From Candidatus Levyibacteriota bacterium (GTDB lineage Bacteria; Patescibacteriota; Microgenomatia; Levybacterales; UBA12049): a stretch of DNA of 64,000 nucleotides. The position numbers were made by a program, and so were the translations under genes. Shown piece after piece: positions 2,764 to 58,189 of this stretch; within the stretch, counting starts at the first letter, position 1, and every line of letters starts with the position of its first letter. Location: positions 19,578 through 83,577 of the forward strand of contig DAIDHL010000006.1 in NCBI GenBank assembly GCA_027459745.1, given 5' to 3'. The notes under the pieces are model-generated. The model worked only from the letters and a program-made list of their open reading frames with translations. It did no database searches and was not told the origin of the DNA.

Positions 2764-3705
2764 ATGCTTTTACTTATTATTGTGCTTGCATTATTAGCAG
2801 GTATAATTGTCTATTTTATCTCAACCAATTTGCTTTCATTGATTTTTTATCATGCTGTTTATTATTGTGCGAACGTAATCCATAATTTTATTATTCCATT
2901 TCCAAATATTATGACATTAACCATCGTTTTTATTATAGGATTGTATTTTTTGTGGATTATCGTTAACTTACTTTTATTTTCATTTAACACATTAAATCTT
3001 GTAGTATTTTCTACAAGAAATATTAATACTGAATTAAGTTACGTTAAAAAGTTAGAATTATATGGAATTGATAAAAATACCATATTATTAAACAGTAATA
3101 GTCTTCAAGCTTTTTGTTTTGGTTTTTTTAATCCTAAAATATACATATCAACAAAAATCTTAGATACTTTTAACAGATCGGAAATAATGGCGATCTGGTT
3201 TCACGAAAATTATCACAGAACTAACTATCATTCATTTAAGAGAGTTATTCGTAATTTTGCAATTTTATTTACGCCTGTTTTTCCATTAATAAAAGATTTA
3301 GCCAAAGAGCAGATGATTAAAGATGAGATTTTAGCAGATAAAGCAGTACTTAAGCATTTAAAAAAAGACTATTTGATATCTTCACTGAAAAAATTAATAA
3401 TCTCAGTTGATTATCCTACTTCAGTTACTTTTTTTGCAGCCTATGATACTTTGTTGCAAAGGATTAATTCAATTAACGAAGTTAAAATTTCTAAAACAGA
3501 TTACGTGAAGTCAACTATTTTTAGCGTTGTTAGCTTATTTGTTTTATTGACTATATGTACTTCTTTAGTTCAGGCGAAAACGATTAATAGTTTTAAATGT
3601 ACAAATAAAGAGTGTTTAACAGTCTGTAAAAATTCCAATTTAAAAATACCTTATTTAAATAATGTTTCTCTACCTATTTCGATACTATACTCTCCCAAGA
3701 GTTGA
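2764..3705 (+). CDS. BlaR1/MecR1-like M56 family membrane metallopeptidase (signal transducer / antirepressor)
   Basis: Multi-TM N-terminal region, HExxH zinc motif (WFHENYH), operon partner of the blaI-like gene. Confidence 0.5.
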   Translation: MLLLIIVLALLAGIIVYFISTNLLSLIFYHAVYYCANVIHNFIIPFPNIMTLTIVFIIGLYFLWIIVNLLLFSFNTLNLVVFSTRNINTELSYVKKLELYGIDKNTILLNSNSLQAFCFGFFNPKIYISTKILDTFNRSEIMAIWFHENYHRTNYHSFKRVIRNFAILFTPVFPLIKDLAKEQMIKDEILADKAVLKHLKKDYLISSLKKLIISVDYPTSVTFFAAYDTLLQRINSINEVKISKTDYVKSTIFSVVSLFVLLTICTSLVQAKTINSFKCTNKECLTVCKNSNLKIPYLNNVSLPISILYSPKS

Positions 3706-3740
3706 TACACTTTGATAGATTGACACATCTTCAAATTATT

Positions 3741-3757
3741 TACTACACTATGTAGTA
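3741..3757. promoter_or_regulatory. Perfect palindrome TACTACActaTGTAGTA (TACA/TGTA dyad, BlaI/MecI-operator-like) abutting the dsbA-like start codon; a TTGACA -35-like hexamer lies at 3720-3725
   Basis: Read directly from the sequence; 7-bp perfect inverted repeat arms. Confidence 0.4.
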
Positions 3758-4521
3758 TGCCAAGAGTAAATAAAGAAATTAACTTAGTTGAGGAACCAAA
3801 ATTGAAACAGCCTCTGTTACCTAAATTTGGCTACACACAAATTTTAGTAGTATTGCTAGTTATCTCTTCATATTTTCTGGGTGTATATTCCACTCAATTA
3901 AAAGATGTACAAGCTAATCCTTCTGCAGTGCAAGGTGCCACTGCACAAGCTGCGGTTGTTTCTCCTACTCCCGGCAAAGTAAATGTTGGTTTAGGATATT
4001 ATCCAATTAAAGGTAACAAAAATGCAAAGGTGACGTTGGTAGAATTTGGTGATTTGCGTTGTCCATTTTGCGAACAATGGTACACGAGTGTTGAGAGTCA
4101 GTTGATGAAAGATTATGTGGATACAGGTAAAGTTAAATTTGCCTTTAGAGATTATGCGTTTTTAGGACCGGCATCTGATACTGCCGCAAATGCAGTTGCA
4201 TGTGCAAATGAGCAAGGAAAGTTTTGGGAAATGGAAGATTATTTCTATAAAAATCAACCTCCAGAAACTGATACGTCCATGTATACAGTCGATAATTTAA
4301 CTCAAGTAGCTGGTACATTGGGAATGGATACAAATCAATTTCAATCCTGCTTGAGCTCTACCAAATATAGCTCTCAGATTGCAAGTGATTTGTCTGATGG
4401 GCAGAAAGCAGGAGTAAGTGGTACTCCCACAATATTTATTGATGGAATCCCAATCGTGGGAGCTCAGCCTTATTCAGCTTTTAAAACAGTTATTGATCAG
4501 GAGCTCGCCAAAAAATCATAG
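3757..4521 (+). CDS. DsbA-family thiol:disulfide oxidoreductase, membrane anchored
   Basis: N-terminal TM helix; thioredoxin-fold active site CPFC (GDLRCPFCEQW); 254 aa. Confidence 0.75.
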   Translation: MPRVNKEINLVEEPKLKQPLLPKFGYTQILVVLLVISSYFLGVYSTQLKDVQANPSAVQGATAQAAVVSPTPGKVNVGLGYYPIKGNKNAKVTLVEFGDLRCPFCEQWYTSVESQLMKDYVDTGKVKFAFRDYAFLGPASDTAANAVACANEQGKFWEMEDYFYKNQPPETDTSMYTVDNLTQVAGTLGMDTNQFQSCLSSTKYSSQIASDLSDGQKAGVSGTPTIFIDGIPIVGAQPYSAFKTVIDQELAKKS

Positions 4522-42581: not shown

Positions 42582-44333
42582 TTAATATGGTGGCCATAGC
42601 TCAATGGTTAGAGCACTAGATTGTGGATCTAGCGGTTGCGGGTTCGACTCCCGTTGGCCACCCCAAATAGGATTTGAAGGGTCAAACGTAGTAGTTTGGG
42701 TTGATTTTGCAGTCTTTTCCTCCGGTTCGAAAGTGTTTGGTTGTTGAACCATAATAGCCTTAGCTTCTTGTATCTTTTCAATGGGCTTTAGTAGGTCTAC
42801 GCTCAGTTTTTTATCCTTTAAGACGAAGTTAATTCCAAGTGCAGAAACAATTGCTCGTTTTTCGTCTGCTGAACCTTTTTCAAACCACCCTCTCGCTTGT
42901 TTAGCAAAATTAAATAATTTTTCCGAATTATCCAGCCATTCATCTTGGGTATCTCCGAGAGCCTTTATTTTTTCTTCAATCTGTTTTCTCTCTAAAATAT
43001 ACTGATTTTTCAGTTTAATATATTCATCATCACTTAAAATTTCTCCATCTTTGTTGGCTTCACTAAAGTATTTTTTGGAAAGATTGTCGAGTCTTCGTGA
43101 AGCCGCTGATATTGCAAATTTTAGATTTTTTAGCATATCAGCTCGAACATTGATATCATCTTGTCGATCTTTACGAAGGATATCCATTGTCCAGTCAATA
43201 AATTCCTGAGGTATGGTAAGGGTAGTAAGTAACTCGTCTATTTGGCGCTCTAAATCGTTTCCAGAAATGCCTGATTGAGTGCATTTAGGATTAAGGTATT
43301 TATCACAGTTGTAATGGATAAGATGTGTTACCTTTTGAGGTGCGATTGTCCCACATTTTGGGCACTTGTCATAGTTTTGAGCGTTAAATCTCTTATGACA
43401 ATTAGTGCAAGTTTTACGGAATCGTTCAGTTCCAGTAATTGATGAAGCACACATACATTTAATAAGATTAGTAAGTGGAAATTCGTGAGCCCTAACCCGT
43501 GGTTTCCCTTTGCGACCAAGAATTATTTGTGCTTTGTCAAATTCTTCTAGTGTAATCATTTGTTTATGTGCTCCTTGTAGTATTTCACCTCGGTACTTAT
43601 ACATTCCAGTATAGAATATGTTTCCAAACATTGCATACATTTGCGAGTCAGAAAGAGGTCTTCCATTCCTTCTGCGAAGTCCCCATTCGTTAGTTGCTAT
43701 TTCAAGTATTTTTGGTGGGCTGTACTGCATATCAAGAAGTAAATCCCACATTTTCCTAATTAAATTGAAACGTCTCTTATCAATAATAATATCGCGTAAT
43801 CCTTGAGGTTTTGCGGTGTTATTCAAATAACCAATAGGAGCAAGGATAGGTGCGTGTCCTGCAAGTATTTTTTCATCCATACCTCTTTTAGTAGCTTTTT
43901 GTAGATCAGTAATAAATTTATTGCTCATTCCAAACTCAACATACATAAGAAGAATATCGTCAATTCCATAGGTTTGAGTAGGCGTAACAATTTTTACGCC
44001 AAAATTTTGTACAAGCCAAATAATACGTCCTCCGTCAACAGGATTGCGAGCCAGACGATTGAGAGCCCAGCACACTATAATCTTAGCTTTTCCCTGTTCA
44101 AGTAGCTGGCACATTTCATTAAATTTAGGTCTGCCCGGTGCTTTTGCAGACTGTTCTTCTTCATAATCGGCAACTGGTTCTTGCGTATTTGTGAAGGAAA
44201 TAGTCTCATGGAATGTACGTTCCTGCGAAGAAATACTCGCCACTTGCTTATTTTTATCCTCTTGAGATTTACGTTTGTATTTTACATAAAGCTCAAGTTT
44301 ATTTCCTGCTAGGTAATATGAGTCATTATTCAT
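42582..44333 (-). CDS. Large serine recombinase (integrase): resolvase-type catalytic domain plus recombinase domain, zinc ribbon and coiled-coil
   Basis: 583 aa; LYVKYKRKSQEDKNKQ N-terminal S-containing block; CxxC...CxxC ribbon (CTNCHKRF...CPKCG); last about 28 codons are the antisense of tRNA-His (..GGQRESNPQPLDPQSSALTIELWPP). Confidence 0.75.
   Translation of the reverse strand: MNNDSYYLAGNKLELYVKYKRKSQEDKNKQVASISSQERTFHETISFTNTQEPVADYEEEQSAKAPGRPKFNEMCQLLEQGKAKIIVCWALNRLARNPVDGGRIIWLVQNFGVKIVTPTQTYGIDDILLMYVEFGMSNKFITDLQKATKRGMDEKILAGHAPILAPIGYLNNTAKPQGLRDIIIDKRRFNLIRKMWDLLLDMQYSPPKILEIATNEWGLRRRNGRPLSDSQMYAMFGNIFYTGMYKYRGEILQGAHKQMITLEEFDKAQIILGRKGKPRVRAHEFPLTNLIKCMCASSITGTERFRKTCTNCHKRFNAQNYDKCPKCGTIAPQKVTHLIHYNCDKYLNPKCTQSGISGNDLERQIDELLTTLTIPQEFIDWTMDILRKDRQDDINVRADMLKNLKFAISAASRRLDNLSKKYFSEANKDGEILSDDEYIKLKNQYILERKQIEEKIKALGDTQDEWLDNSEKLFNFAKQARGWFEKGSADEKRAIVSALGINFVLKDKKLSVDLLKPIEKIQEAKAIMVQQPNTFEPEEKTAKSTQTTTFDPSNPIWGGQRESNPQPLDPQSSALTIELWPPY
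42589..42665 (+). tRNA. tRNA-His (anticodon GTG) with G-1 and encoded CCA
   Basis: G-1 plus acceptor GTGGCCA/TGGCCAC, anticodon stem CTAGA/TCTAG with loop TTGTGGA, T-loop TTCGACT, 3' CCA. Confidence 0.85.
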
Positions 44334-44485: not shown

Positions 44486-44856
44486 AGATTGCCACCCCCT
44501 AGCTTCCCTATTTGGTAGGTATGTTTTAAGTGTATTGTCTTGAATTTGCCTAAATCAACCTTCGATAGCCACATAAGATTACACAAAAAAACAGCCCTGA
44601 AAAGGCTGTCTAAAAACAAAAAACTCAAACTTTTGTCGAACCTTTTCAGTAAACTGAATGGGTTAACGACCTTGTTTGAGTGTAATCTCTATCTCTGTAA
44701 CTCTGTTAGGTAACCTTATTTGTGTCAATTCGGTCAAGCCGAAAAGATATTCCTCAAAGAGCCTTCTAACGTCTTTGCTACTTCGATATCAGCATCGAAA
44801 CCTGATATTTAATTGTATCTTTACTGTACCACTATATGTATAAAAAAGCAAGATAT

Positions 44857-45432
44857 TTAGCCTTCTGATCTCTTATCAACTTCAAATTCAGCTTCACCAT
44901 TTTTTATTCCTAGTTTAGTTGTAATATAGCCGACAAAAGATGGTTGAGGACAATCAGCGTTAAGACGGCTCTGTTCCTCTGAAAACTCTTTAAGCTTATT
45001 TGTTAACACAAGCTCAGAATCTTTTCCCCAGCAATCAAGAGTTCTAAAAATTCGTACTCTATTATCTAAGGAGTCATAGCTACTTCCTGCTTTGTGGTGA
45101 ATTGCTGATTTTTGATTTGGGTTTAGAAATGTCATTAAACCACTGAGTGCAGCTACAATTAATGCAATAATGCCTGAAATGTTATGGGAGCCATCAAACT
45201 GAGCGAATGACTTCACAGCTACGATTCCTGAAAGGACTGTTGTAGGAACGCCCAGTAGTAGATGGAAGAAACCCCACATTGAGCTATCATTATAATGGCT
45301 TTTAGCACTGAATCGAGCAGATTCTTCAATTCTTAATGCCTCTTTTATAATTTCAGTCTTTGTTTTTGAAACTACTACTTCTGTTGCAGTTGTTTTTTTT
45401 CTTTTAGCCATATGCAGGAAAATAGTCTCCAA
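44857..45432 (-). CDS. 2-TM effector-like protein (SLATT-like), downstream partner of the nucleotidyltransferase
   Basis: 191 aa; two TM helices (FFHLLLGVPTTVLSGIVAV, ISGIIALIVAALSGLMTFL) followed by a charged C-terminal domain; 29-nt overlap with the upstream gene. Confidence 0.4.
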   Translation of the reverse strand: METIFLHMAKRKKTTATEVVVSKTKTEIIKEALRIEESARFSAKSHYNDSSMWGFFHLLLGVPTTVLSGIVAVKSFAQFDGSHNISGIIALIVAALSGLMTFLNPNQKSAIHHKAGSSYDSLDNRVRIFRTLDCWGKDSELVLTNKLKEFSEEQSRLNADCPQPSFVGYITTKLGIKNGEAEFEVDKRSEG

Positions 45433-46288
45433 ATATTAATCTCCATTGTTCTATTGCTTGCCTAATATACCCTCTATTAGCAAAATCCTCTGCTCTTATT
45501 GCTCTATTATATGCAGTTTCAAATTTTGTTACTGCATTATCTATTTTTTCAGGGGAATCTATGTAGTAGCCTATATCGCCACCATATCCAGCAGGATCAG
45601 GATTTTGTTTAGAAATGAGGGTTCTTCCTTTATCAAAGAAATATCTTGTGCCAGTGGAAAAATCACTTATGACAACATATTTCATTATTTCTAAAGCAAG
45701 TGCTTCTAAATGAAATGAATGAAAAAAACTTCCCTTTGTTCTATTCCATGCTTTTATCATTTTTATTAGTGGAACTAATTTATATTCATGTGAAGCATTG
45801 GATTCGGATATAAGCTCGACGTGTTTCGTGGGATCGGTAGCTATCCAGTTCTGTTTGATAGAGTTAGGAATTAAATATCCGCCTCCCTGGCGATGAAATC
45901 CCGGCACAACATCTATCAAAAAGTCATTAAAATGTATTGTTACTGCTTGTCCATCTCTTGATATGTGAGGCGTTCTGGTGTACGTACGTAATAGAGTACG
46001 TTTTACTAAATCCAATAGTCCAGCTTGCCCACCATTTTTACCGTTGTCATAGTTATAGAAGTATTTATTATCCAGTACTACAAAAACGTCTATATCTGCT
46101 TCTTGGAGTGGTGCAATCATTGTATGACGCTTATACGATCCTGTAAGAAAGGAGTCTTGTACGTCCATATTTGCTTCAATTGCTTCTCTAACATTGCTTT
46201 GTCTTGTTGAGACTATAGAAGATTGTGGTTCTGTTATTTCTAAATTTCTCTTAAATTGGAGGAATGATTCGTTTATAGTAATAGCCAT
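45404..46288 (-). CDS. SMODS / CD-NTase-like nucleotidyltransferase (pol-beta superfamily)
   Basis: TGSYKRHTMIAPLQEADIDVFVVLD (GS-x9-DxD) and a downstream acidic residue in DFLIDVVPG; start taken at MAITINES (46288); the ORF track extends to 46321. Confidence 0.55.
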   Translation of the reverse strand: MAITINESFLQFKRNLEITEPQSSIVSTRQSNVREAIEANMDVQDSFLTGSYKRHTMIAPLQEADIDVFVVLDNKYFYNYDNGKNGGQAGLLDLVKRTLLRTYTRTPHISRDGQAVTIHFNDFLIDVVPGFHRQGGGYLIPNSIKQNWIATDPTKHVELISESNASHEYKLVPLIKMIKAWNRTKGSFFHSFHLEALALEIMKYVVISDFSTGTRYFFDKGRTLISKQNPDPAGYGGDIGYYIDSPEKIDNAVTKFETAYNRAIRAEDFANRGYIRQAIEQWRLIFGDYFPAYG

Positions 46289-46321
46289 TTGGCAATGATT
46301 GTAGCACCATAAGATATGCAA

Positions 46322-46954
46322 CTACAATGGTTGTGATTGCCAATCACGTTTTTTTATCCAATGATATAAATTTGCTTCCGTTGTCCCATATCGTTTTGCA
46401 ATAAATCGTTGTGTGCTTCCGTTTGCCAACAAGGCTTTGATTTCCACTTCATATTGATCTAGCTTGCTTTTCCCTACGCCTTTTGGACGTCCCAGCTTGA
46501 TTCCAGCGAGTTTCTTTGCTTGCAGTGCCTCAATAGTGCGCTTGCTGATTAAATCGCGTTCAATTTCGCTTGCCATTGAGAAACACATTGCCACAAGTTT
46601 GCTTTGAATAGAGTTATTCAGCTCCCAACTCCCTTTTATAGCAAAAACATTTATTTGCTTTTGTGTAGCCACAGATAAAATTTCCATAATTTCAAGCATA
46701 GACCTTCCCAGCCTTGAGAGTTCGGAGACAATAAGATTATCTCCCTTTTGCATAGTTTCCAGCAATTCTGCAATCTTCCGCTTTCGCCACGACACTTTCC
46801 CTGATATTTGTTCAGAAACAAACTCCACATGTCCGAGTTGCTTTGTATTTGCCAGTTCCAAAATAGCTGATTTATTCTTCTCTAAGTCTTGCAAGGCAGT
46901 TGAAACTCGAAGGTAAGCATAGGTTTTAGGCTGTGAATTAAATAAAAACGTCAT
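46322..46954 (-). CDS. Small serine recombinase (resolvase/invertase, Hin/Gin-like) with a C-terminal HTH
   Basis: YAYLRVSTALQD catalytic-Ser block, SRLGRS, GRPKG plus HTH (GSTQRFIAKRYGTTEANLYHWIKK). Confidence 0.85.
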   Translation of the reverse strand: MTFLFNSQPKTYAYLRVSTALQDLEKNKSAILELANTKQLGHVEFVSEQISGKVSWRKRKIAELLETMQKGDNLIVSELSRLGRSMLEIMEILSVATQKQINVFAIKGSWELNNSIQSKLVAMCFSMASEIERDLISKRTIEALQAKKLAGIKLGRPKGVGKSKLDQYEVEIKALLANGSTQRFIAKRYGTTEANLYHWIKKRDWQSQPL

Positions 46955-47073
46955 GTTTATAATTTTATTATTATCATCCTTATAACAAAATCAAGCCTTT
47001 TCTTTTGTGGTTTCTTTTTAGGATAAATGAACGTTTTTGCTATAGAGAGCAATGCTATAATTATTCCAATATA

Positions 47074-48291
47074 ATGAAGGACTATTTCCATATCAATGAA
47101 GTTAGACCACAGGAGTTAATGCGGATATTGTTGATGCATTTCAACCAAGCTCAAAACATTAGTGATTTCACATATAGATATAAAAATCCAAGTTCAAGTA
47201 ACTATATCGATGTCTTTTGTAACGAAGATGGAAGTATAAAAAATATAGTTATATCTAAAGATTTCCCAGAAGAAGAACTTATGCAACTGAAGCAGAAAAT
47301 TCAAGATAATTTGATTACAGATAATGGCGAAATGGTTGGACAGATTATTGGTTTCTGTACAGAAAAAATATCAGGGTATTTTAAGTACAAAGATTTATTT
47401 CAAATATTTCCAGTCCCAGACAGTTCGCCAAAGCCTGATGTTGCTATTGCAGACCATCCTTTTGTTTTTGAGGTTAAGTTCAAAAAAAGTCCAGATTTTA
47501 CTATTAACAACAGTAGAAAAATGGAAAAAGCTATAATTTATTCCCGTTTATTAAATCAGTTGGTAAATCAGCACATTTGGTTAGGTAATAGGTACGGTCA
47601 ATTTGCATGGGCATACATTAATGTGGAAGATGTGGCTAATTTAACGAGCAAATGGGTTCAGTTGGGGTATATCCCAAAGGGCTTAGAAGATAACGGAGGA
47701 CGATTTTCATCACTAGATGCATTAAAACCAATAGAAAGAGAAGAATTCAATAAATACTATTCTTCTATGGGTAGGTCTACTGCAGATTTTAAGCTGCCAG
47801 ATAATTTGGAAGCCTCTTTAGACAAGGCTTTCTCTCTTGGTAGTTCCAAATGGAAGAAGTTCTTCATGGCTTGTAGCTGGTATGCTCAACATCCTTTTAC
47901 TTGGCAAGAATCACATTCATCTGCCTTTATAGAGTTAGTAACAGCTCTTGAATGCCTTGCTCAGGACAAGGATGTTTGTAAGTGCTGCAATCAACCCCTC
48001 TTGGAGAATGAAGACATCTGTAAATGCTGTGGACAGCCGCGTTATAGAGTAACAAAGCATTTCCAGCAATTCTTGAAGGAGTATGTACCAAGTATAGATC
48101 ACTATCCTCTAGCGAAAAAGACAATTTATCAAATTAGGTCGCAGCTTGCACATGGTATGGATTTATTACAGGCAGATTTAGAACCTTGGCATTTTATGAT
48201 GGATGCAAGGCAGGATGATCAGAGAAAACTACAATCTGACCTATACTTTATAACGCGTACTGCTATTTACAATTGGCTTCATAAGGCTTAA
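47074..48291 (+). CDS. Uncharacterised protein with a twin CKCC Zn-ribbon and an R-x4-H (HEPN-like) motif; defence-island cargo
   Basis: Start at ATG 47074 after a TATAAT; C-terminus CKCCNQPLLENEDICKCCGQP ... IRSQLAHG. Confidence 0.4.
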   Translation: MKDYFHINEVRPQELMRILLMHFNQAQNISDFTYRYKNPSSSNYIDVFCNEDGSIKNIVISKDFPEEELMQLKQKIQDNLITDNGEMVGQIIGFCTEKISGYFKYKDLFQIFPVPDSSPKPDVAIADHPFVFEVKFKKSPDFTINNSRKMEKAIIYSRLLNQLVNQHIWLGNRYGQFAWAYINVEDVANLTSKWVQLGYIPKGLEDNGGRFSSLDALKPIEREEFNKYYSSMGRSTADFKLPDNLEASLDKAFSLGSSKWKKFFMACSWYAQHPFTWQESHSSAFIELVTALECLAQDKDVCKCCNQPLLENEDICKCCGQPRYRVTKHFQQFLKEYVPSIDHYPLAKKTIYQIRSQLAHGMDLLQADLEPWHFMMDARQDDQRKLQSDLYFITRTAIYNWLHKA

Positions 48292-48300
48292 TGTATAAGC

Positions 48301-49044
48301 ATGAAAAAGCAAAAAATTAAAGCTAGCAAATTACGAAACACCTCTGATCCTACTTTAGCAAAACCACACGCAAAAGGAGCAAATGTAGCTCTTGTTCAGC
48401 CGTCAAAAGACAATGTATGGGGAAGATTTTACTTTGTTCAATATCATAGGTATCCGCTGTTGCTTTCCAAAAGCGCAAATTACTACAAGGACGTAATTGA
48501 TTTACTGACAAAAGCAAGAGCTTTACCCGTAGGAAAAGATAATACTCGATTATTAGATGACCAGTTGCGCGATGAACTTGAATTTGCCTCTATGCAGTTT
48601 CTGATTTTTACCAAACTTGCATTTGAATATATGACTACAGAAATGCTAACAATGATAAACAACATCCATCTCCACAAAGGCGGTAAAGTTGAAGTTCCTT
48701 GGGAGAACTTTTCAATTACTGAACGCTTGACCATACTTCTTAAAAATTTGAATCTTAAATTTATTGTTCCTGATTGTCTCAATAAAATTCTTACTAATAG
48801 AGATTTAGTTGAACATCCTTCAAAAGATCGTCTTTACTCCCCGACAGAAGACGAGTGGAAAAATGTGCATCTTGCATGGGTACTTAGTGGAGAGATAGAA
48901 GGTTGCTTAGATAAACTTGTGAACTTTGTTAATCCAATCATTGAAGCATTTGATAAATTTGTTGATGCAAATCAAATTCCTGGACAATTAACGGGTCTGC
49001 AAAGAGGATTAAAATCGATAGATAATTTCAAAAAGTCAAAGTAA
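48301..49044 (+). CDS. Uncharacterised protein with an R-x4-H motif (TNRDLVEHPS); likely operon partner of the 47074 gene
   Basis: 9-nt intergenic gap; no recognisable family. Confidence 0.35.
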   Translation: MKKQKIKASKLRNTSDPTLAKPHAKGANVALVQPSKDNVWGRFYFVQYHRYPLLLSKSANYYKDVIDLLTKARALPVGKDNTRLLDDQLRDELEFASMQFLIFTKLAFEYMTTEMLTMINNIHLHKGGKVEVPWENFSITERLTILLKNLNLKFIVPDCLNKILTNRDLVEHPSKDRLYSPTEDEWKNVHLAWVLSGEIEGCLDKLVNFVNPIIEAFDKFVDANQIPGQLTGLQRGLKSIDNFKKSK

Positions 49045-49053
49045 AAGTGGTAA

Positions 49054-49779
49054 TTATAAAGAATCTGCGTAAGCTTGAATTAGAAGTTTTGCTCGTTCTT
49101 TACATTCGTTTTCTGTTAATCTCCTATTTGCAGGAGTAACGGCATGTCTTTGAAGTTGAGTCGTTTGTCTAACATCTGTTGCAAATGACTCATTTTGTCC
49201 AGCGAGTGCTGCGAGTTGTCTCCAACCACCTACATGATGGGCAATTATTTCAAGTGCCTTATAGATGCCATAAAGAGGTTTGTCGTCATCAATAATTTCT
49301 TCATTAAAATAATGTAATGCGTGTTTTAAGGTATCATCATTAAGCGCTTTATTTACTATTAAAGTATCATTTATAGGGCTAGCGCTATCGTGCATTTCCT
49401 GCGTTACTATGAGTGCTGTGCCTTGTATAGTTACTTGGTGAGTTGTTGTCTGAATCTGAACGCGTTCTACTGCCTTTGCAGCATCATGTATTCCTAAGAA
49501 GTGATCTTTGTGTCCTTCAGCATTTGTTTTCCATGTATGGTTGAAATTAACACTTACTTTTATATTTTGCCGGAAAGCCCATGCATCTAAGTATAATTCT
49601 GCAATATTTTTTGCTTCTTCAAGTTGATTCTCGTCATCTACACCAACGTACAAAATTCCATCTCTTATTTCTATTTCAGTACCATCGGGATTATAAAAAA
49701 CTTCACAAACATCCTTAAAGGGAAAATTGATAATCTCGCCTTGAATTCCGTAGGGTTTGTTCATAAATGATAACTTCAA
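49054..49779 (-). CDS. Uncharacterised 241-aa protein translationally coupled to the Type III res gene
   Basis: TTG start overlapping the res TGA (TTGA overlap); alternative ATG 15 nt downstream (49762-49764). Confidence 0.35.
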   Translation of the reverse strand: MKLSFMNKPYGIQGEIINFPFKDVCEVFYNPDGTEIEIRDGILYVGVDDENQLEEAKNIAELYLDAWAFRQNIKVSVNFNHTWKTNAEGHKDHFLGIHDAAKAVERVQIQTTTHQVTIQGTALIVTQEMHDSASPINDTLIVNKALNDDTLKHALHYFNEEIIDDDKPLYGIYKALEIIAHHVGGWRQLAALAGQNESFATDVRQTTQLQRHAVTPANRRLTENECKERAKLLIQAYADSL

Positions 49780-52085
49780 AGAAATGTTATTTGTTTCAAT
49801 ACATCATCTAAGTTTGTTTTGCTAACAAGATAAAATTTATTTCCATTACCATTTAACTTCTCCCATAATTCACCAAGTTTAACTTTATAGGCAGTATCTT
49901 CATTAGAAAGTCTGTCTTCACCTTTATATTCTAATAACAAATAATCACCGTTTTTTGTTTTTACAATGATATCAGGATAGAATTTTCCTGACTGCCAACC
50001 TTGAAGGTAAAAATCTTCTTTTTCTCTGTTTCTATACCACCATTCAATGTTATCAATAATATCTAGTCTTGAAGCCAACTCAGTTTCTTCTCCATTCAAA
50101 TTTCCTGCCTTTTCAAATAAATGTTTATTGAAGTGTTCTTGAGAAACTCTTGCTAGAGAAATTTCTTTTTCTGGAGTAAAGTAAGCAGAATCAACAGTTA
50201 TTTCTCCTTTGTTCAATAATCCGTCAAACCGCTTTGTCGCATACTCTTGTATTATTTTTGATACTTCTTCTGCTATTCGTTCCTTTAGCCTAAATCTGTT
50301 TAGACTTAATTCTTCTACGCTATGCGTCTTGGATAAATCCTTCATAAGAAGATCAATATATCTTGCCATTTCTTCAGAAGCTATTATTGGTTTCCTCACA
50401 TTTCTTTTAAGCCAGTTAGTTACTTCTTCAAGTGAAAAATCCTCTGGGTAAAGAATTAAAGATAATTTCCCCTGTGTAATTTTGAAAAGTCCATTCTTCT
50501 CGTCAATATCAATTACAGCTTTTCTATTTTGATCTTCGTGGAAGTTGATATCAAACGGTTTGTAATATTCGTCAAGCATAAACTCATTTCCAATTAAATC
50601 TCTATTAAAGGCAAGACTGTCTGTTCTTCCTTTCAATCCAAACATAGGAATGTTAATGTTGTCATCTTTAATTACTTGTTTGTATTCTTCCTTTTCAACA
50701 ACAATTTTTCCTTTGTTTTCCTTTAAGTCCTCTCTAGAGTAGCCATGCTGTTCAAGCCCTTTAATTATTGCGTCTGAGGCTTTCCTAAAATTCTCTGAGG
50801 ATGTAAATACATAGGAGTTGTTGAGTTCTAAGTTTTTCTTTTCTACAGCATTAGGAAGACGCATAATACGTCCTATGGTTTGTTCTACCGCTATTGTAGA
50901 ACCAATGTTAGCTACTGATACTAACACGTAAGCAAATGGACAGTCCCAGCCTTCTTTTAGCGCATTAACTGTAATGATGTAGCGTATATTACATTTAGGT
51001 GATAAAAGATCAATATTACTTATTTCGTCTTGTTTGGAAGTTTTGATTGCAATTTCATTTTCTGAAATTTTAAGCTCGGAAATTAAGAATTCCTTAATTT
51101 GATCAACATAAATTTTACTCTCACTTTCCTTTTCTTGTTCTGCCTGTAGCAACATAATGGGTCTTATGTATTCTTTTGTCTCACGCTTTTCTTTTTGAGC
51201 CAGTTTTTCTAGTTCTTTTAATTGGTTTATTCCATCTCTGATTGTTTCTTGCCATTGAGAAACATTAGATAGCCAAATAGGAATCTTTACCATTTTTTGT
51301 GCTTTTAATTCTGAAGCTGAAATTTCAACTAACACATTGCTTTCTTGCCTTGGTGTGGCAGTGTATTCAATGATAAAGGAGGGGTTAAGATTTTGAAGCA
51401 TCTCAAAAGAAAGTGGGGTTTGAGCATTGTGTCCTTCATCTAATACTACAATAGGCGAATTGATTTTAATAACATTGGCAAGAGAGTAATAAATTCCTCC
51501 TTCTTCGTCTTTATCCAAAAAGTTAGTATCCTCAACAAGATTTTCAAAATGAGAAAGTAAAGCTCCATTACTCTGGAATACTTTTAGCCACAATTTGTCA
51601 TTTCTTCTGAAAGCTGCAAGACTAGAGACAACAATACAAAGGTTATTTTGTATATCTGATTTTTGAATAGAAAGAGCTTCTTCTACGGTAAAAATTTTTA
51701 TATTGTTACCAAACTGAGAATCCAGTGCTTCTCGGTATGGATGGTTTCTGTCTTTTAATGCCTTGAGTGTTTGATTACGAATTGCATCGGATGGGACAAA
51801 CCACATGACAAGTCCTGTTCCATTTTTCTCTTGTAAGTAATTATCAAGGATAACTGATAAGCTATGACAAGCAACGACTGTTTTCCCTCCACCTGTAGGA
51901 ATTTTGATACAAACAAATGGAGTTTCTTCAAGTTGTGGGATAGGTTTATATGCCTTTCCTTCTTCTCCTGCTTTATCTAAAAATGCTAGTCTTATACCTC
52001 TTGAGCCTTTAAGCGTAGAAGCGTCATTAAGGAATTGTTTTAATTCATCAAGTGCTGTTTGTTGGTAAGGTTTTAATTGGAACAT
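49776..52085 (-). CDS. res: Type III restriction enzyme Res subunit (SF2 helicase plus C-terminal PD-(D/E)xK nuclease)
   Basis: Walker A KIPTGGGKTVVA, DEGH box (VVLDEGHNAQT), C-terminal YPDIIV...LLEYKG nuclease motif. Confidence 0.8.
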   Translation of the reverse strand: MFQLKPYQQTALDELKQFLNDASTLKGSRGIRLAFLDKAGEEGKAYKPIPQLEETPFVCIKIPTGGGKTVVACHSLSVILDNYLQEKNGTGLVMWFVPSDAIRNQTLKALKDRNHPYREALDSQFGNNIKIFTVEEALSIQKSDIQNNLCIVVSSLAAFRRNDKLWLKVFQSNGALLSHFENLVEDTNFLDKDEEGGIYYSLANVIKINSPIVVLDEGHNAQTPLSFEMLQNLNPSFIIEYTATPRQESNVLVEISASELKAQKMVKIPIWLSNVSQWQETIRDGINQLKELEKLAQKEKRETKEYIRPIMLLQAEQEKESESKIYVDQIKEFLISELKISENEIAIKTSKQDEISNIDLLSPKCNIRYIITVNALKEGWDCPFAYVLVSVANIGSTIAVEQTIGRIMRLPNAVEKKNLELNNSYVFTSSENFRKASDAIIKGLEQHGYSREDLKENKGKIVVEKEEYKQVIKDDNINIPMFGLKGRTDSLAFNRDLIGNEFMLDEYYKPFDINFHEDQNRKAVIDIDEKNGLFKITQGKLSLILYPEDFSLEEVTNWLKRNVRKPIIASEEMARYIDLLMKDLSKTHSVEELSLNRFRLKERIAEEVSKIIQEYATKRFDGLLNKGEITVDSAYFTPEKEISLARVSQEHFNKHLFEKAGNLNGEETELASRLDIIDNIEWWYRNREKEDFYLQGWQSGKFYPDIIVKTKNGDYLLLEYKGEDRLSNEDTAYKVKLGELWEKLNGNGNKFYLVSKTNLDDVLKQITFL

Positions 52086-52086
52086 A

Positions 52087-53715
52087 TTAGAATTTCTTTA
52101 GCTCGTAAGGAATTTGCTTAAAGATAATATTGTTTTTCAAGCAAAATTCTTCATCCAATAGGCACTTATCTGCATAAATTACTTTAATCCCATCTTGAGC
52201 AAGCATAGGTTTCACTGATTTATCATCCAAGACATTTTTACCATTACTTGAGAATAAGAGAAAGTAATGACTTTGTCCCATACTCCCAAGATATGGATTT
52301 TTAATAGAGGTTAAATCAAGGTAGTCATGAGTCTCGGTAAAGTAAATGTATGAGGCTAAATCTTCATATTGAGAGTTTGGATTAATAAAACCACTATTAT
52401 CAAAAAGTTCTCCATTTAATTCAAGATATTGAAAACCTTGTCCTGTTCCATCTGGATATTTTGCTCCTTCATAACCTTCAATGACTTTTTGCAATCTCTT
52501 TGCGGTGACGTTTCTCGCGATATTCTTTTCAAGCTCAATAAGAATAAATCTTCTGTTACCACCATCCTCATTATTTGATTCAAGAACAGCTTGACCTGTT
52601 GTGCCAGAGCCAGCAAAAGAGTCTAAGTATATTCCATCCGGATCCCCCATGAGTTGAATAACTTTGTTTATCAATCCTACTGGTTTGGGAAATGGAAATT
52701 GTTCTCTTAAACCCATGAACCGAAGTTGTGTAGTTCCTTGCTCAGTTATTACCTCCGTTTCATCCCATATAGTCTTAGCACTTACATTAGCATTTCTATA
52801 TTTCTCAAATATTCTCCACTCTCCCGTTTGTTTTTGCTTAGCATAGATAACATCTGTTGACTCATTTTTAGTATTTTCATTTAATTTTTTACCACTCCAC
52901 CTCCAGCAACTTTCTTCATTTCTACTATTAAGTGGTAAAACTTCAACGCTAAACTCCTTACTCTTTTCATTAGATACTGGTGAAAATCCATTTTCATCTT
53001 TCTTTTGAGGGTTTACATAGATTGGATAATAGAGATTGGGTCGGTTAAATCGTCCAAATTTTGGATTACGATTTCTTAACTCTCTACTAGAAAAATCCCC
53101 GATCCTATCTTTTTCAGGCAAATGCCCTTCATCTGCATTTAATTGGTATAATTTTGTCTTGTTAGTTTTTGAATAACAAAGGAGATATTCATGTGTTTTT
53201 GCTAATTGCTTAAAGGTATGACCACGTTTATTTGATTGAACAATTATTTGAGCTTGGAAATTATTTTCTCCGAAAATTTCATCCAAAATTAATCTTAGAT
53301 AATGAACCTCATTGTCATCAATTGAAACAAAAATTGCTCCATCATCAGAGAGAAGTTCATATAGAAGTTTTAGACGTGGATACATCATGCAAAGCCATTT
53401 ATCATGTCTACACAAATCTTCACCTTCTGCGCCAACGACCTCATTAAGCCATGCTCTAATTTGAGGTGAATTTACCTTGTCATTGTAAACCCATTCTTCA
53501 TTTCCAGTATTGTAGGGGGGATCAATATAAACGCATTTGACTTTGTTGTAATAAAAGGGCATCAATGCTTTGAGAGCCTCAAGGTTATCTCCTTCAATTA
53601 GGAGATTCTCAGAACCATCAACAGATAACGCTTTATTTGGTTTTAACACTCTAAATGGCAGGTCTTTATCGTGGTTTTCTACCTTATCTTTTCCAATCCA
53701 TGTAAATTGTGGCAT
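52087..53715 (-). CDS. mod: Type III Mod DNA methyltransferase (beta-class amino-MTase)
   Basis: Motif IV VYIDPPYNTGN precedes motif I DSFAGSGTTGQA; 1-nt gap to res. Confidence 0.8.
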   Translation of the reverse strand: MPQFTWIGKDKVENHDKDLPFRVLKPNKALSVDGSENLLIEGDNLEALKALMPFYYNKVKCVYIDPPYNTGNEEWVYNDKVNSPQIRAWLNEVVGAEGEDLCRHDKWLCMMYPRLKLLYELLSDDGAIFVSIDDNEVHYLRLILDEIFGENNFQAQIIVQSNKRGHTFKQLAKTHEYLLCYSKTNKTKLYQLNADEGHLPEKDRIGDFSSRELRNRNPKFGRFNRPNLYYPIYVNPQKKDENGFSPVSNEKSKEFSVEVLPLNSRNEESCWRWSGKKLNENTKNESTDVIYAKQKQTGEWRIFEKYRNANVSAKTIWDETEVITEQGTTQLRFMGLREQFPFPKPVGLINKVIQLMGDPDGIYLDSFAGSGTTGQAVLESNNEDGGNRRFILIELEKNIARNVTAKRLQKVIEGYEGAKYPDGTGQGFQYLELNGELFDNSGFINPNSQYEDLASYIYFTETHDYLDLTSIKNPYLGSMGQSHYFLLFSSNGKNVLDDKSVKPMLAQDGIKVIYADKCLLDEEFCLKNNIIFKQIPYELKKF

Positions 53716-54100: not shown

Positions 54101-54718
54101 ATGAGACCTGAATCAATTTATAGACCGATTTATCTTTGGTTAAGCAATCAGCCAAAGTGGTTGCAGATTGGTGTTCCCCTAGTTGTTTTAGTATTATCGT
54201 TTATTGTTCTTCAATGGTTTGGATTGATAGTCATGGCTGCTGTTTTAGTCTTTACGTTTGTCTATGGACGCAAAGACCCTGATGTCAGTAGGCGCTTTAC
54301 GATTAAATACATCACAGGTTTGTCAAAGTTTTCAAAACCAATGAGCAATATGGCTCTATATATTGATGAAGATGGATTACGCTTCAAATATCCATTACGA
54401 GGCGAGGTAAAAGTTGCTTACGACACAATCAGTAAGATGGAAGCTGAAACAAAAACACAAATTACCAGAACCGCAAGTATGCTCAAGGGTGCAGTTGGAT
54501 TAGCTCTTGCTGGTCCCTTGGGAGCCATGATAGGTATGGGCATAGGTAGTAAACATGACGATTCACAATATTTTGTTACGGTGGTTTACAAAGATGAACT
54601 AGGAGAAGATAACCTTATTGTTTTGCAACAAAGTGGGATGATGTCCGCAAATGCGTATGAGGTTGTATCCGCTATGAAAGAGGCAAGGAAAAGGTATATA
54701 CTCTCACATAAAAATTAG
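54101..54718 (+). CDS. Hypothetical membrane protein (2 N-terminal TM helices, a C-terminal Gly-rich helix)
   Basis: ORF; 2-nt gap to the FtsK-gamma-like gene. Confidence 0.3.
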   Translation: MRPESIYRPIYLWLSNQPKWLQIGVPLVVLVLSFIVLQWFGLIVMAAVLVFTFVYGRKDPDVSRRFTIKYITGLSKFSKPMSNMALYIDEDGLRFKYPLRGEVKVAYDTISKMEAETKTQITRTASMLKGAVGLALAGPLGAMIGMGIGSKHDDSQYFVTVVYKDELGEDNLIVLQQSGMMSANAYEVVSAMKEARKRYILSHKN

Positions 54719-54719
54719 T

Positions 54720-54923
54720 TTGCTTATGGATAGTGCTTTGTATTTGGCTGCAAAAAATATATTCAAAGATGAAGTTTCTATTAGCACCGCTACACTTCAA
54801 CGATATTTCCAGGTTCCATATTACCAAGCCCGAGTAGTTTTAGATAGCCTCATTCGAATTGGATTTTGTGAGGAACAAGTTGGAAGTAAGCCTTGTCGGG
54901 TTATATCAAATGAAAAAAACTAA
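54720..54923 (+). CDS. Standalone FtsK-gamma (winged-helix, KOPS-binding-like) domain protein
   Basis: SISTATLQRYFQVPYYQARVVLDSLIRIGFCEEQVGSKPCRVI resembles the FtsK gamma consensus ...ASTS.LQRRL.IGYNRAAR..D.ME..G.V...GSKPREVL. Confidence 0.5.
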   Translation: MLMDSALYLAAKNIFKDEVSISTATLQRYFQVPYYQARVVLDSLIRIGFCEEQVGSKPCRVISNEKN

Positions 54924-55006
54924 GAAAGAAGTAGATAAAGAGGTTGATTTGTTTGCAGAACAATTCGCAAGGTTGCTTATCGAACAAGTTAGGTGGAAAA
55001 GAAACA

Positions 55007-55306
55007 ATGGATTGGCTAACACCACAACTAAGAAAAAAAGTAAGGGAAGTCTTTGAGCCACGGTATAAACGGAAGTTAACTGAAGCTGAGGTTGAAGAAA
55101 TCGCAGATAATTTAAGCGAAGTGGTTGAAGTTATTCTCAATTCAAATGGAGGCAAAAATATAGCAATGACAATACTGGAGGCAAGAAAGAAGCTAGGGGA
55201 AAAAGCAGATAAGTACACAGATGTCCAGCTTCAGAAAATAATAAATATGCTTACAATTTTGTGTAGTAAAACAATTGATTTAGTTATAGAAAAAACAGAA
55301 AAATAA
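55007..55306 (+). CDS. Hypothetical 99-aa acidic protein
   Basis: ATG at 55007 in frame within the ORF that the track starts at 54944. Confidence 0.3.
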   Translation: MDWLTPQLRKKVREVFEPRYKRKLTEAEVEEIADNLSEVVEVILNSNGGKNIAMTILEARKKLGEKADKYTDVQLQKIINMLTILCSKTIDLVIEKTEK

Positions 55307-55373
55307 CAGGGTTCTCATAAAACTTGTGTCCTTACGTAGGTATTCATGCAAGGAAGTGAACTCACCCGCAAAG

Positions 55374-55406
55374 AAAACCGAGGTTCTAGCCGATCTCGGT
55401 TTTTTG
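55374..55406. terminator. Bidirectional rho-independent terminator AAAACCGAG-gttctagccgat-CTCGGTTTTTT between convergent genes
   Basis: GC stem with A-run upstream and T-run downstream. Confidence 0.6.
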
Positions 55407-55511
55407 TTTGAGTACCCTCTTAAAAATACGAACGCCTTGGATTCTGGTTGCTCCGTAGAAGTACGTTTTAGCAATTAGGATAATATGAGTGGTTTGAGGA
55501 TAAAAAGGCTT

Positions 55512-56096
55512 TTACAAGCTATCCTGAGCTGTTTGGCTACTTTGTCTTTTCGCTTCTTGCTCTTTCAACCATTCTGCTTCTTCCTCCGCAGTTTGAATAA
55601 TCCTGTATGGAGGTAAGGGCTGCCCATTAGCCCAAGTCATGTGAACTGGTGGTTTTGGTTGTGTGCCTATGTTTACAACAGTATTTTGAACTTGTTCTGG
55701 TTTATCAAATGGAATTCCAAGTCCAAGCGCTTCTAAGCGTAACCCTTCTACTAAGTAGCTGAGAACATCTTTTGCGCTTTGGGGTTCTAGTCCTTCCTCT
55801 GCGAGTAGACGCAGGGCTTTGCTTGAAATTAGCCTACCTACATCCAATTGTTTTTTGCGGTAAATGGTTACATCATTAATAGCTTCTTTTTGTATGCGCT
55901 TATATATTCCTTGAAGCACCTCCGCACGTTTTCGTGGCCATCCGTCCCTGTACCCCTTGTACTCAATTAGCCTCAATTGAATATTGTGCTTTTCTGCGAG
56001 TTTCTGGTAAGACATTTTCTCGTCCGTAACGTAATCATAAAAGATTTGATTCCAGTCAATTTGTTGTTCGGTGGTAGAATTTTCCATTCTACCCAT
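55512..56096 (-). CDS. Possible terminase small subunit-like / HTH DNA-binding protein
   Basis: N-terminal SYQKLAEKHNIQLRLIEYKGYRDGWPRKRAEVL HTH-like segment; about 190 aa; weak. Confidence 0.3.
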   Translation of the reverse strand: MGRMENSTTEQQIDWNQIFYDYVTDEKMSYQKLAEKHNIQLRLIEYKGYRDGWPRKRAEVLQGIYKRIQKEAINDVTIYRKKQLDVGRLISSKALRLLAEEGLEPQSAKDVLSYLVEGLRLEALGLGIPFDKPEQVQNTVVNIGTQPKPPVHMTWANGQPLPPYRIIQTAEEEAEWLKEQEAKRQSSQTAQDSL

Positions 56097-56128
56097 ATTT
56101 TACCCCTAAGTTGTCAAGTTTTTTTAAT

Positions 56129-56147
56129 GTCTAAGACCTTAGAGTTT
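56129..56147. repeat. 19-bp motif copy 2 (GTCTAAGACCTTAGAGTTT, the reverse complement of copy 1) in the promoter region of the 55512-56096 gene
   Basis: Exact match to 53761-53779 in inverted orientation. Confidence 0.7.
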
Positions 56148-56219
56148 TTATATACCAGACATATAAATTAAACTTTTCATCACTGGCTCCTAATTGTGAT
56201 TAAGAACCAGAGTCAAAAG

Positions 56220-56534
56220 CTAATTTTTAGAATTAACTTTGAGACTGTAAATGTCTAGTTCATCAGTCTCGATATCATGTTTTTTATTCATTTCATCCCA
56301 TGCTTGTTCAACCTCTTGGGATAGAGCTTCTGCCACCCTTACTTCAAGAATTAGCATTTGGTAATCAAATAGTGTATCTGTACTGACTTTGTGTGCCTCC
56401 GTTTTTTTCAGTTCTTTTATGAGAGCGAGCTTTGCTTCATGACAATATGCTTTGTGATTTTTGACATATTCGTTTAATGCATCATCAACTGTTTCTAGCT
56501 CACATTCGTCAAGATTGCTAAATTTGTTTTGCAT
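56220..56534 (-). CDS. Hypothetical acidic 104-aa protein
   Basis: ORF only. Confidence 0.3.
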   Translation of the reverse strand: MQNKFSNLDECELETVDDALNEYVKNHKAYCHEAKLALIKELKKTEAHKVSTDTLFDYQMLILEVRVAEALSQEVEQAWDEMNKKHDIETDELDIYSLKVNSKN

Positions 56535-57704
56535 TGTTTCTCACCCCCTTTCTCAGAATTTTGAATTTGTGTATTTTCATGCGAGGTTACATAACCCATT
56601 GCAGTCTTTGTTTTTATTTCAGGTTCAAGATTGTCGTAATATCTAATCATTTCTGTTCGAAAATCATCACCTCTACCTAATTCATTACGAGTTTTCTCAA
56701 GATTACGAAGAAACAATTCTTTTGATCCAGTTTTTATGCAACGTCTAGCAACTCCTTTTAATTGACGTATTTTGTATTCTTCTTCAACCTTACGTTTACT
56801 CTCCCACCATTTCTTAATTCCTTCGGGAGTATTTTCAACCTTACCATTATCAATAGCCCACTGTAGTTGAATTTCTGCTGTTGATTTTTGGTGTATGATT
56901 TTTTCAACCTCTCCGTTTTGAATACCAGTTTTCACGAATGATTCAATCGCTGCTTTATAATCTGAATACTTTTTGCCATTTGCCCGACAATATAATTCCA
57001 GTTCATCCTTCTTTTTTATCACTGCATTTAATGAGACACTAAGCCTTGTAGCAATTTCTTCTAAATCGTCCTCCTGTATTTGTTCAAGTTGTGAATATTT
57101 TCTGATACCCCTCACTACTTTTGATGTATTAATTACTTTAGCTTTTGGGTTTACTTCTGAGGTTGGTTTCACTCCAATGCTAGGAATGACATTACTTATA
57201 GGATGGTTATCAGTAAAAAAATTATTTGGCTTTTTTGTATTTAAGTTACTATCTTTAGTATTTGTATTCGGAAACTCCATGCTCTGGTTATCAGGGGTAT
57301 TGGATTGTAAATCACCACTATCCGGATTTTCAGGTGTATGGTTTTGATTAGGGTAAAAATAATTGACCTTAATGTAATGTCCCACTATTCTCCCATGTTT
57401 GTCCTTTCTGGTCACAGACTCTATAAATCCTTCTTTCAAAAGAACTTCTTTTGCCAAGCCAAATTTGTCTTTTCCCCATCCAAGTCCTTTTCGACAGTAT
57501 GTATCGGTTGCATGGATATTGTCTCTGTGTCCATATTTTTGTGATTGCCATAATGCAGTAAGGTAATAGTGGTTGTACAACTGTGTAGCATTAGCGCCAA
57601 GTTTGTGGAGCCGAATGAAAGTAGCCATAGGTATGGATACAGTATTTTGGTTAATTACATTAAATTGTTCAATAATGTCATCATTCTGTTTCATATAGAG
57701 CCTC
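56495..57704 (-). CDS. Putative replication initiator / replisome-organiser-like protein
   Basis: Start at ATG 57704 with SD GAAGGGAGG; N-terminal winged-helix-like segment (ATFIRLHKLGANATQLYNHYYLTALWQ); adjacent AT-rich, repeat-containing non-coding region. Confidence 0.3.
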
Positions 57705-58189
57705 CCTTCATACAAAAAAAGCGATACCAACTACTTCAGTTGATACCGCCGGGCGATTACTCGCTTCATCGGATTTGTGTTGTATTAGCTTGCCATAAAA
57801 AAATCCGCTTTGTGCTAGCTCTTAGGGAAGGCTCTGTGGTTAGCCAAGAGCAAGCACGAAACGGACTTTTACCACAGCTATTACCCTAATCTATTTATAA
57901 ATTAAATTTATTCGAATGTCAACGATTAGATTGATATAGCAACATAATCGTTAATAATATTATTAACTAAAATTATGAATCGAAATTATATATTGAAATA
58001 TAATTGGTAACGCAGTAGTATGATTTGATAGTAGGGGTTTCATAATACAGGTATGGCGTATTGGAAATTCGTTTCCTTTACAGCGGTTCTAAAATCCTGT
58101 ATCCAAGTACCCACTTTTTTAAATATTATCGGATCAATTATCTTCATTTCTTACACGTTTTTGGTACAATTTGTATTAATATTAGCCTG

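Follow-up and report, generated by a model that had tools for sequence, protein, structure and literature searches.

A very probable Type I CBASS cassette with a SLATT_4-type effector, carried in a mobile defence island of a Levyibacteriota bacterium

The simplest of the antiphage systems that signal by cyclic oligonucleotides (CBASS), those of Type I, are minimal two-gene operons that suffice for defence; over 80% of them combine cyclases of clades D, E or F with effectors bearing two or four transmembrane segments, closely related cyclases adjoin different effectors, and an operon of CdnF with SLATT6 protects Escherichia coli (bioRxiv 10.1101/2023.05.21.541620). SLATT4 and SLATT6 are among the membrane effector classes that jointly account for over 40% of the effectors of CBASS (PMC12480259). 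A more elaborate, Type III, arrangement is that of the cyclase PaCdnD from Pseudomonas aeruginosa ATCC27853 (structures 6P82, 6P8J and 6P8U), whose activity requires a HORMA partner: it is activated by HORMA2, opposed by the Pch2/TRIP13 ATPase, and signals to the nuclease NucC through its main product, cAAA (10.1101/694695). Here we describe a locus related to both, found in a 64,000-nucleotide (nt) stretch of DNA from a Candidatus Levyibacteriota bacterium (contig DAIDHL010000006.1; this whole stretch is referred to as the window, and all positions are given in it). Three co-directional open reading frames (ORFs) of the minus strand fill positions 44857–46954, all of them at the coordinates listed in an earlier reading of this DNA (the original prediction). 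They encode a nucleotidyltransferase, a small membrane protein and a serine recombinase, and we consider it very likely, with a probability of roughly 90%, that the first two constitute a CBASS of Type I, with two genes, that is cargo of a mobile defence island beside a tRNA-His gene.

The cyclase and its membrane partner

The two genes of the pair are as follows.

45404–46288, minus strand: nucleotidyltransferase of the cGAS/DncV-like kind (CD-NTase; CBASS oligonucleotide cyclase), 294 amino acids (aa), clade-D-like; from Pfam, PADLOC, NCBIfam, PDB phmmer and Foldseek matches and from motifs
44857–45411, minus strand: SLATT_4-type two-transmembrane CBASS effector, 184 aa; from PADLOC, NCBIfam, hydropathy, an AlphaFold2 (AF2) model and genomic pairing

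The nucleotidyltransferase matches the Pfam SMODS model at 2.8e-27, the PADLOC Cyclase model PDLC00823 over its full length at 4.4e-102, and the NCBIfam model CBASS_cyclase_b (‘CBASS oligonucleotide cyclase’) with 208.3 bits against a curated cutoff of 200. The GS/DID signature of the pol-beta superfamily and the third acidic residue, to which the original prediction had drawn attention, are found as G50-S51, D65-I-D67 and D126 (the last in the sequence LIDVVP). The active site is thus intact, and G50-S51, D65, D67 and D126 are invariant or nearly so across 38 homologues. In sequence searches of the PDB with phmmer the best matches are the three PaCdnD structures at 1.8e-29, the next ones being 20 orders of magnitude weaker, and the protein is only ~27% identical to any solved CD-NTase. 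Its AF2 model (pLDDT 83.9) retrieves nothing but CD-NTases among the top 50 PDB matches of Foldseek, the best of which is again PaCdnD (6p82, TM-score 0.77–0.79), assigned to group D5 of clade D (PMC8096243). A protease-sensing activation loop of the kind described in PMC12991175 was also considered for the cyclase and is not indicated, because the AF2 model contains no long low-confidence loop.

The effector matches the PADLOC 2TM Effector model PDLC00712 at 1.4e-52 and the NCBIfam model SLATT_4 (NF033632) with 97.7 bits, the cutoff being 55. Hydropathy reveals two hydrophobic segments, at residues ~47–67 and ~77–97, and in the all-helical AF2 model (pLDDT 82) the helices H18–70 and H76–96 span both of them. 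The features that define a SLATT protein are therefore all seen here: a curated SLATT_4 model matched above its cutoff, a two-transmembrane hairpin and a neighbouring SMODS nucleotidyltransferase. Among the homologues, an N-terminal SKTKxEIIKEAxRIEE helix and a C-terminal helical region of ~85 residues are conserved, and both are candidate places to look for nucleotide sensing. With a profile of 25 homologues run against 50%-identity representatives, 3006 clusters are recovered at E≤1e-3; the SLATT effector family is therefore a large one. A search with SMODS and SLATT models and a structure prediction of the nucleotidyltransferase had been proposed as checks, and both speak for the pair as it was first described, a CBASS cyclase followed by a two-transmembrane, SLATT-like effector.

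The gene boundaries call for some correction. The original prediction gave the effector 191 aa and an overlap of 29 nt with the cyclase gene, which is correct for the longest ORF (44857–45432, with a TTG start) but not for the likely start, the ATG at 45411, which yields the 184-aa product on the public record and is the start used by most homologues. The true overlap of the cyclase stop and the effector start is therefore 8 nt (ATGGCTAA), not 29, and it is identical in the closest relative of the locus (L003). In the same way, the longest ORF of the cyclase starts with a TTG at 46321 and leaves no gap to the recombinase gene, as had been reported, whereas the ATG at 46288 is where the homologues and the profile alignments start, and a spacer of 33 nt precedes it.

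More than 2,400 homologues of the cyclase were found, many of them 65–67% identical, and some are named ‘CBASS oligonucleotide cyclase’ by their sources, in bacteria of the candidate phyla radiation (CPR), in Acidobacteriota and in one archaeon; a search of viral contigs for relatives of the cyclase found none. Gene pairing was examined at 20 related cyclase loci in species-representative genomes, with their fetched flanks. At 10 of the 20 a SLATT homologue lies directly downstream of the cyclase, and these paired loci come from Acidobacteriota, Atribacteria, the Verrucomicrobiota group, Patescibacteria, Margulisbacteria, Planctomycetota and others, so that pairing and gene overlap extend across phyla. 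In at least five further loci (L008, L013, L014, L016/L017 and L022) the place of SLATT is taken by a CBASS 4TM effector; L008, L013, L016 and L022 were scanned with PADLOC, and the proteins of L014 and L017 are near-identical to that of L016. In two loci a second, divergent CD-NTase paralogue (~25% identity) stands in tandem with the cyclase homologue (L009, 1628–2482; L012, 9034–9897).

Comparison with L003 (75% protein identity) also delimits what moves. Nucleotide homology between the two loci is confined to 46307–44875, a stretch that comprises both CBASS genes and 19 nt upstream, and none is present in the flanks; the mobile unit is therefore the two-gene cassette. Two short elements accompany it.

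46298–46306, minus strand: TGCTACAAT, resembling an extended -10 element, 9 nt ahead of the ATG of the cyclase; read from the sequence
44589–44611, minus strand: hairpin and T-run resembling an intrinsic terminator, ~250 nt past the SLATT stop; from a consensus scan

At the position of the first of these, GTGCTACAATCA is kept upstream of the cyclase in L003, and TGCTACAAT is probably the cassette's own promoter, a candidate that would give rise to a short-leader or leaderless mRNA. The terminator-like element, a consensus match only, consists of a stem of 10 pairs followed by TTTTTGTGT. Between it and the SLATT stop lie ~250 nt (44612–44856) of apparently non-coding DNA, which have neither an Rfam match nor homology to the closest CBASS relative.

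Class of the system and its possible mode of action

All the hallmarks of a Type I CBASS are seen at this locus: a CD-NTase with the GS...DxD...D site, an adjacent co-oriented effector of a recognised class, and no ancillary regulators. As the original prediction had noted, Cap2 and Cap3 are missing. Pfam, PADLOC and NCBIfam scans of the genes between 42.6 and 53.7 kb found no ancillary gene of any kind looked for (Cap2/Cap3; HORMA/TRIP13; QueC/TGT/OGG-like); besides the pair, these genes encode recombinases, three proteins without matches and a Type III restriction–modification (R-M) pair. The further suggestion that this might be a new minimal variant is not borne out, because a cyclase and an effector without ancillary genes are what defines Type I, of which the 2TM and 4TM forms are the commonest, and both proteins strongly match curated models. 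Nor is the lack of a separate signal-binding domain the mark of a new variant; it is the norm for the membrane-effector class of Type I. The locus thus adds one sequence to a large and already modelled class, the Type I CBASS with a SLATT/2TM effector.

Like the Type I operons EcCdnD12-4TM and EcCdnF04-SLATT6 tested in bioRxiv 10.1101/2023.05.21.541620, it has a CD-NTase gene and, behind it, that of a small membrane effector, but neither a separate sensor domain nor ancillary Cap genes, and the relatives of its cyclase swap 2TM (SLATT) for 4TM effectors, as has been published for Type I. Unlike those systems, its effector is of the SLATT_4 class, and its host is an uncultured bacterium of low GC content (~36%). 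PaCdnD resembles the present cyclase in size (~300 aa) and in the GS/DxD/D site, and is its best match; unlike the PaCdnD system, however, the locus has no HORMA, TRIP13 or NucC genes, and it employs a membrane protein as effector.

By homology to characterised CBASS, the pair may be expected to work in the following way. The CD-NTase would stay idle until phage infection, and would then use its GS/DxD/D pol-beta site to cyclise nucleoside triphosphates into a cyclic di- or trinucleotide. The presumably co-translated SLATT_4 protein, coupled to it through the gene overlap and predicted to sit as a two-helix hairpin in the inner membrane, would bind this nucleotide directly via its conserved cytoplasmic N- and C-terminal helices. 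Binding would lead it to oligomerise and permeabilise the membrane, so that the infection is aborted and the pair would act in defence.

Several observations weigh against this assignment or against parts of it. The HORMA partner that PaCdnD, the closest solved cyclase, needs for activity is not encoded here. The Pfam SLATT models all stay below threshold on the effector (only SLATT_5 appears, at 0.063), although the homologues P0255, P0260, P0261 and P0263 do carry PF18186. No PDB sequence match to the effector was obtained even at E≤10, and Foldseek returned nothing better than E=0.69; because no solved structure resembles the effector, its nucleotide-binding and pore-forming steps draw on the genomic association of the family only. 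Finally, ‘clade-D-like’ is to be read as a placement by best sequence and fold matches, not by phylogeny. The SLATT_4 class is abundant, with thousands of 50%-identity clusters, yet it has no solved structure or fold relative, and how so small a protein might read a nucleotide is a question for the whole SLATT class, not one peculiar to this locus.

The small serine recombinase and alternative readings

Directly upstream of the pair, the third ORF encodes a recombinase, around which the following features were recorded.

46322–46954, minus strand: small serine recombinase, 210 aa, with YLRVST as catalytic motif and a DNA-binding region at the C terminus; from Pfam, NCBIfam, PHROG and PDB matches
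46955–47050, minus strand: conserved region upstream of the recombinase (motif and promoter); from a nucleotide alignment of recombinase loci and a promoter scan
46637–46656, plus strand: inverted 18/20 copy of TATAGCAAAAACGTTCATTT within the recombinase gene (codons ~100–106); from a motif scan, significance uncertain

With Gin/Hin, Tn3, gamma-delta, Sin and Mpi the recombinase shares a Resolvase domain with the nucleophile serine, a C-terminal helix-turn-helix (HTH) and a candidate site upstream of its own gene; in the case of tnpR, too, the res site sits before the resolvase gene. It matches Pfam Resolvase at 2.4e-27 and the PHROG DNA invertase family at 6.9e-40, and its best NCBIfam model is that of the Mpi invertase family (NF009949), at 182.2 bits, which is below the equivalog cutoff of 272. 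The best PDB match is the Gin invertase at 3.2e-12, followed by the Sin, Tn3 and gamma-delta resolvases at ~1e-8, and the alignment to Gin covers residues 4–176, DNA-binding domain included. The description as a Hin/Gin-like recombinase with an HTH therefore holds in that the enzyme is a serine recombinase of the small type and has a DNA-binding region at its C terminus, but the likeness to Gin is distant, and Mpi, the best model, is matched below its cutoff. The resolvases, too, are only distant relatives, and neither a second res copy nor a segment that could be shown to invert was found.

What is conserved lies in front of the gene. The 20-nt motif TATAGCAAAAACGTTCATTT occupies 47044–47025, 90 nt before the recombinase ATG, and is followed by a promoter-like TTGATT-16-AATAAT at 46994–46967. 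The upstream copy of the motif differs at 0–1 positions in L024 and L027 and at 4 in L025, and ~100 nt upstream of the gene are kept at the nucleotide level in these unrelated assemblies (L024, 5786; L025, 5911; L027, 1739). This region probably combines a binding or res-like site of the recombinase itself with its promoter, and the simplest view of the enzyme is that of a protein of the resolvase or invertase type for which this site is the target. The recombinase has more than 7,900 homologues; thousands that are 72–95% identical occur in very different lineages, while viral contigs yielded only 5 relatives, 53–60% identical, which are uninformative. The recombinase and its upstream site look like a widely mobile module of a recombinase with its cognate site.

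In other integrative islands, recombinases 75–95% identical to this one adjoin cargo of unrelated kinds. Seven recombinase contexts were inspected in detail, and the flanking genes differ from one to the next: L024 has a system resembling the ABC-three-component type and M48/zinc-ribbon genes, L026, L027 and L028 have unknown genes, and L030 has a fragment of a Type I R-M system. In four contexts tyrosine integrases lie 1–5 kb from the recombinase. The island of L025 shares with the window the Type III mod–res genes, two genes for proteins of 247 and 405 aa and the recombinase (77–85% nucleotide identity); homology stops ~25 nt before the recombinase stop codon, beyond which L025 carries DUF488 and other genes and no CBASS. 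Since L025 shares the backbone but not the CBASS genes, the recombinase is part of the backbone of the island and the CBASS genes are exchangeable cargo, apparently in a variable slot just downstream of the recombinase. The reciprocal comparison agrees: no recombinase homologue (tblastn, E≤1e-5) was found within the fetched flanks at any of the 20 cyclase loci compared. Together with its conserved site, the recombinase is the mark of a backbone that recurs in small integrative defence islands, and it may help to find new cargo, of which the unannotated genes for the 405-aa and 247-aa proteins are an example.

The original prediction had offered a closer connection, in which the invertase mobilises or phase-varies the module. 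In its most explicit form, the recombinase would invert the promoter-bearing segment 46637–47044 and switch expression between the recombinase–CBASS side and the divergent genes for the 405-aa and 247-aa proteins. Such a switch could use the two copies of TATAGCAAAAACGTTCATTT, which are inverted, 368 nt apart and bracket the recombinase promoter; they are the only matches with ≤3 mismatches in the 64 kb, where 0.03 would be expected by chance and 1% of local shuffles reach this level. The upstream copy is conserved across loci, and its A-tract half-site is one that we take to resemble hix/gix half-sites. The in-gene copy behaves otherwise, however: it is not kept in L024 and L027, both of which have near-perfect upstream sites, and in L025 and L026 its decay goes hand in hand with that of the codons for QINVF(A/S)(I/V)KG. 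Inversion would moreover cut the recombinase at codon ~100, destroying the very enzyme needed to flip the segment back, and a second independent consensus assembly, Logan SRR34502217, which is 99.4% identical over 12,252 nt, runs collinear with the window throughout and in the same orientation. Of a Hin/Gin-type system the locus thus has the recombinase with catalytic serine and C-terminal HTH but not the inverted site pair bounding a regulated segment, no inverted repeats bracketing the CBASS pair were found, and the cassette seems to bear a -10-like element of its own. Given the unconserved in-gene copy, the damage to the recombinase gene and the collinear assembly, together with the unrelated cargo found beside the recombinase elsewhere and its absence from the related CBASS loci, an inversion switch is quite improbable.

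A different role for the recombinase would be that of an integron-like defence platform, with its 3′ flank as a capture site into which the CBASS genes were inserted by recombinase-mediated cassette exchange. The sequence just after the recombinase does differ in every context inspected, and the point at which homology between the window and L025 ends lies close to the stop codon; but an alignment of seven loci shows no conserved sequence at or after the stop, the only conserved site being the upstream one, and the orientation of the cargo varies. Ordinary mosaicism of islands accounts for this pattern, and cassette exchange is very improbable. The more general proposal that this recombinase family and its upstream site are the engine of an undescribed defence-island platform, be it through promoter flipping or through cassette exchange after the stop codon, is likewise improbable. 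Least credible of all is a denial of the CBASS itself, in which the nucleotidyltransferase would be an MNT/KNTase antitoxin or a housekeeping pol-beta enzyme and the two-transmembrane protein unrelated to it, the outcome that the original prediction had itself named as its refutation. A weak match to the generic NTP_transf_2 model (0.0095, below cutoff) is what can be said for it; since curated models of CBASS cyclases cover its whole length and the top 50 folds are all CD-NTases, and with a SLATT/2TM CBASS effector as partner in a pairing kept across phyla, this identity is rejected for the cyclase and may be regarded as practically out of the question. We thus retain the Type I CBASS, as exchangeable cargo beside a backbone recombinase.

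The island around the pair

Housekeeping genes extend up to the tRNA-His gene (42590–42665, plus strand; ARAGORN and Rfam) and resume at ~58 kb. From tRNA-His onwards, the island consists of a large serine recombinase, the CBASS pair, the small recombinase, three unknown proteins, the Type III R-M system and the right-end genes. Two further features were assigned by library matches.

42582–44333, minus strand: large serine recombinase, 583-aa ORF, at the left island edge; Pfam Resolvase 6.3e-15, Recombinase 1.3e-5
49776–53715, minus strand: Type III R-M pair (res 49776–52085, mod 52087–53715); PADLOC REase_III 2.7e-94, Pfam ResIII 4e-14 and N6_N4_Mtase 5e-36

At 42582–42665 the ORF of the large serine recombinase ends in ~28 codons (WGGQRESNPQPLDPQSSALTIELWPPY) that read antisense to tRNA-His, which places the gene next to the probable integration site or across it. 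A tRNA-His-derived direct repeat was not found on the right side, between 53.7 and 58.1 kb, and an Rfam scan of 40–53 kb returned tRNAs only and no other small RNA. The independent Logan contig L023 (12,252 nt) begins inside tRNA-His (42637) and extends to 54888; the borders of the island, or junctions that vary between strains, may lie at these breaks in the assembly.

The three neighbouring proteins of 405/428, 247 and 241 aa have no match in Pfam, NCBIfam, PADLOC, PHROG or the PDB. Two of them, the 405-aa protein, with CxxC...CxxC motifs, and the 247-aa protein, are encoded at 47071–49044 on the plus strand and have a counterpart at 3910–5880 of L025 (76–85% identity). Since the recombinase and the Type III R-M system are kept there with them, they are candidates for an uncharacterised defence pair. 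The 241-aa gene lies between res and the 247-aa gene (49054–49779), a place taken in L025 by a gene for a DUF5655 protein (2908–3861), and this position appears to be a second variable slot of the island.

The right-end genes (54101–57730) give faint PHROG matches, to a small terminase subunit at 55512–56096 (2.8e-5) and to a DnaD-like helicase loader at 56495–57730 (4.2e-6), which hint that the integrative element bearing the defence island is of a phage-satellite-like or replicative kind.

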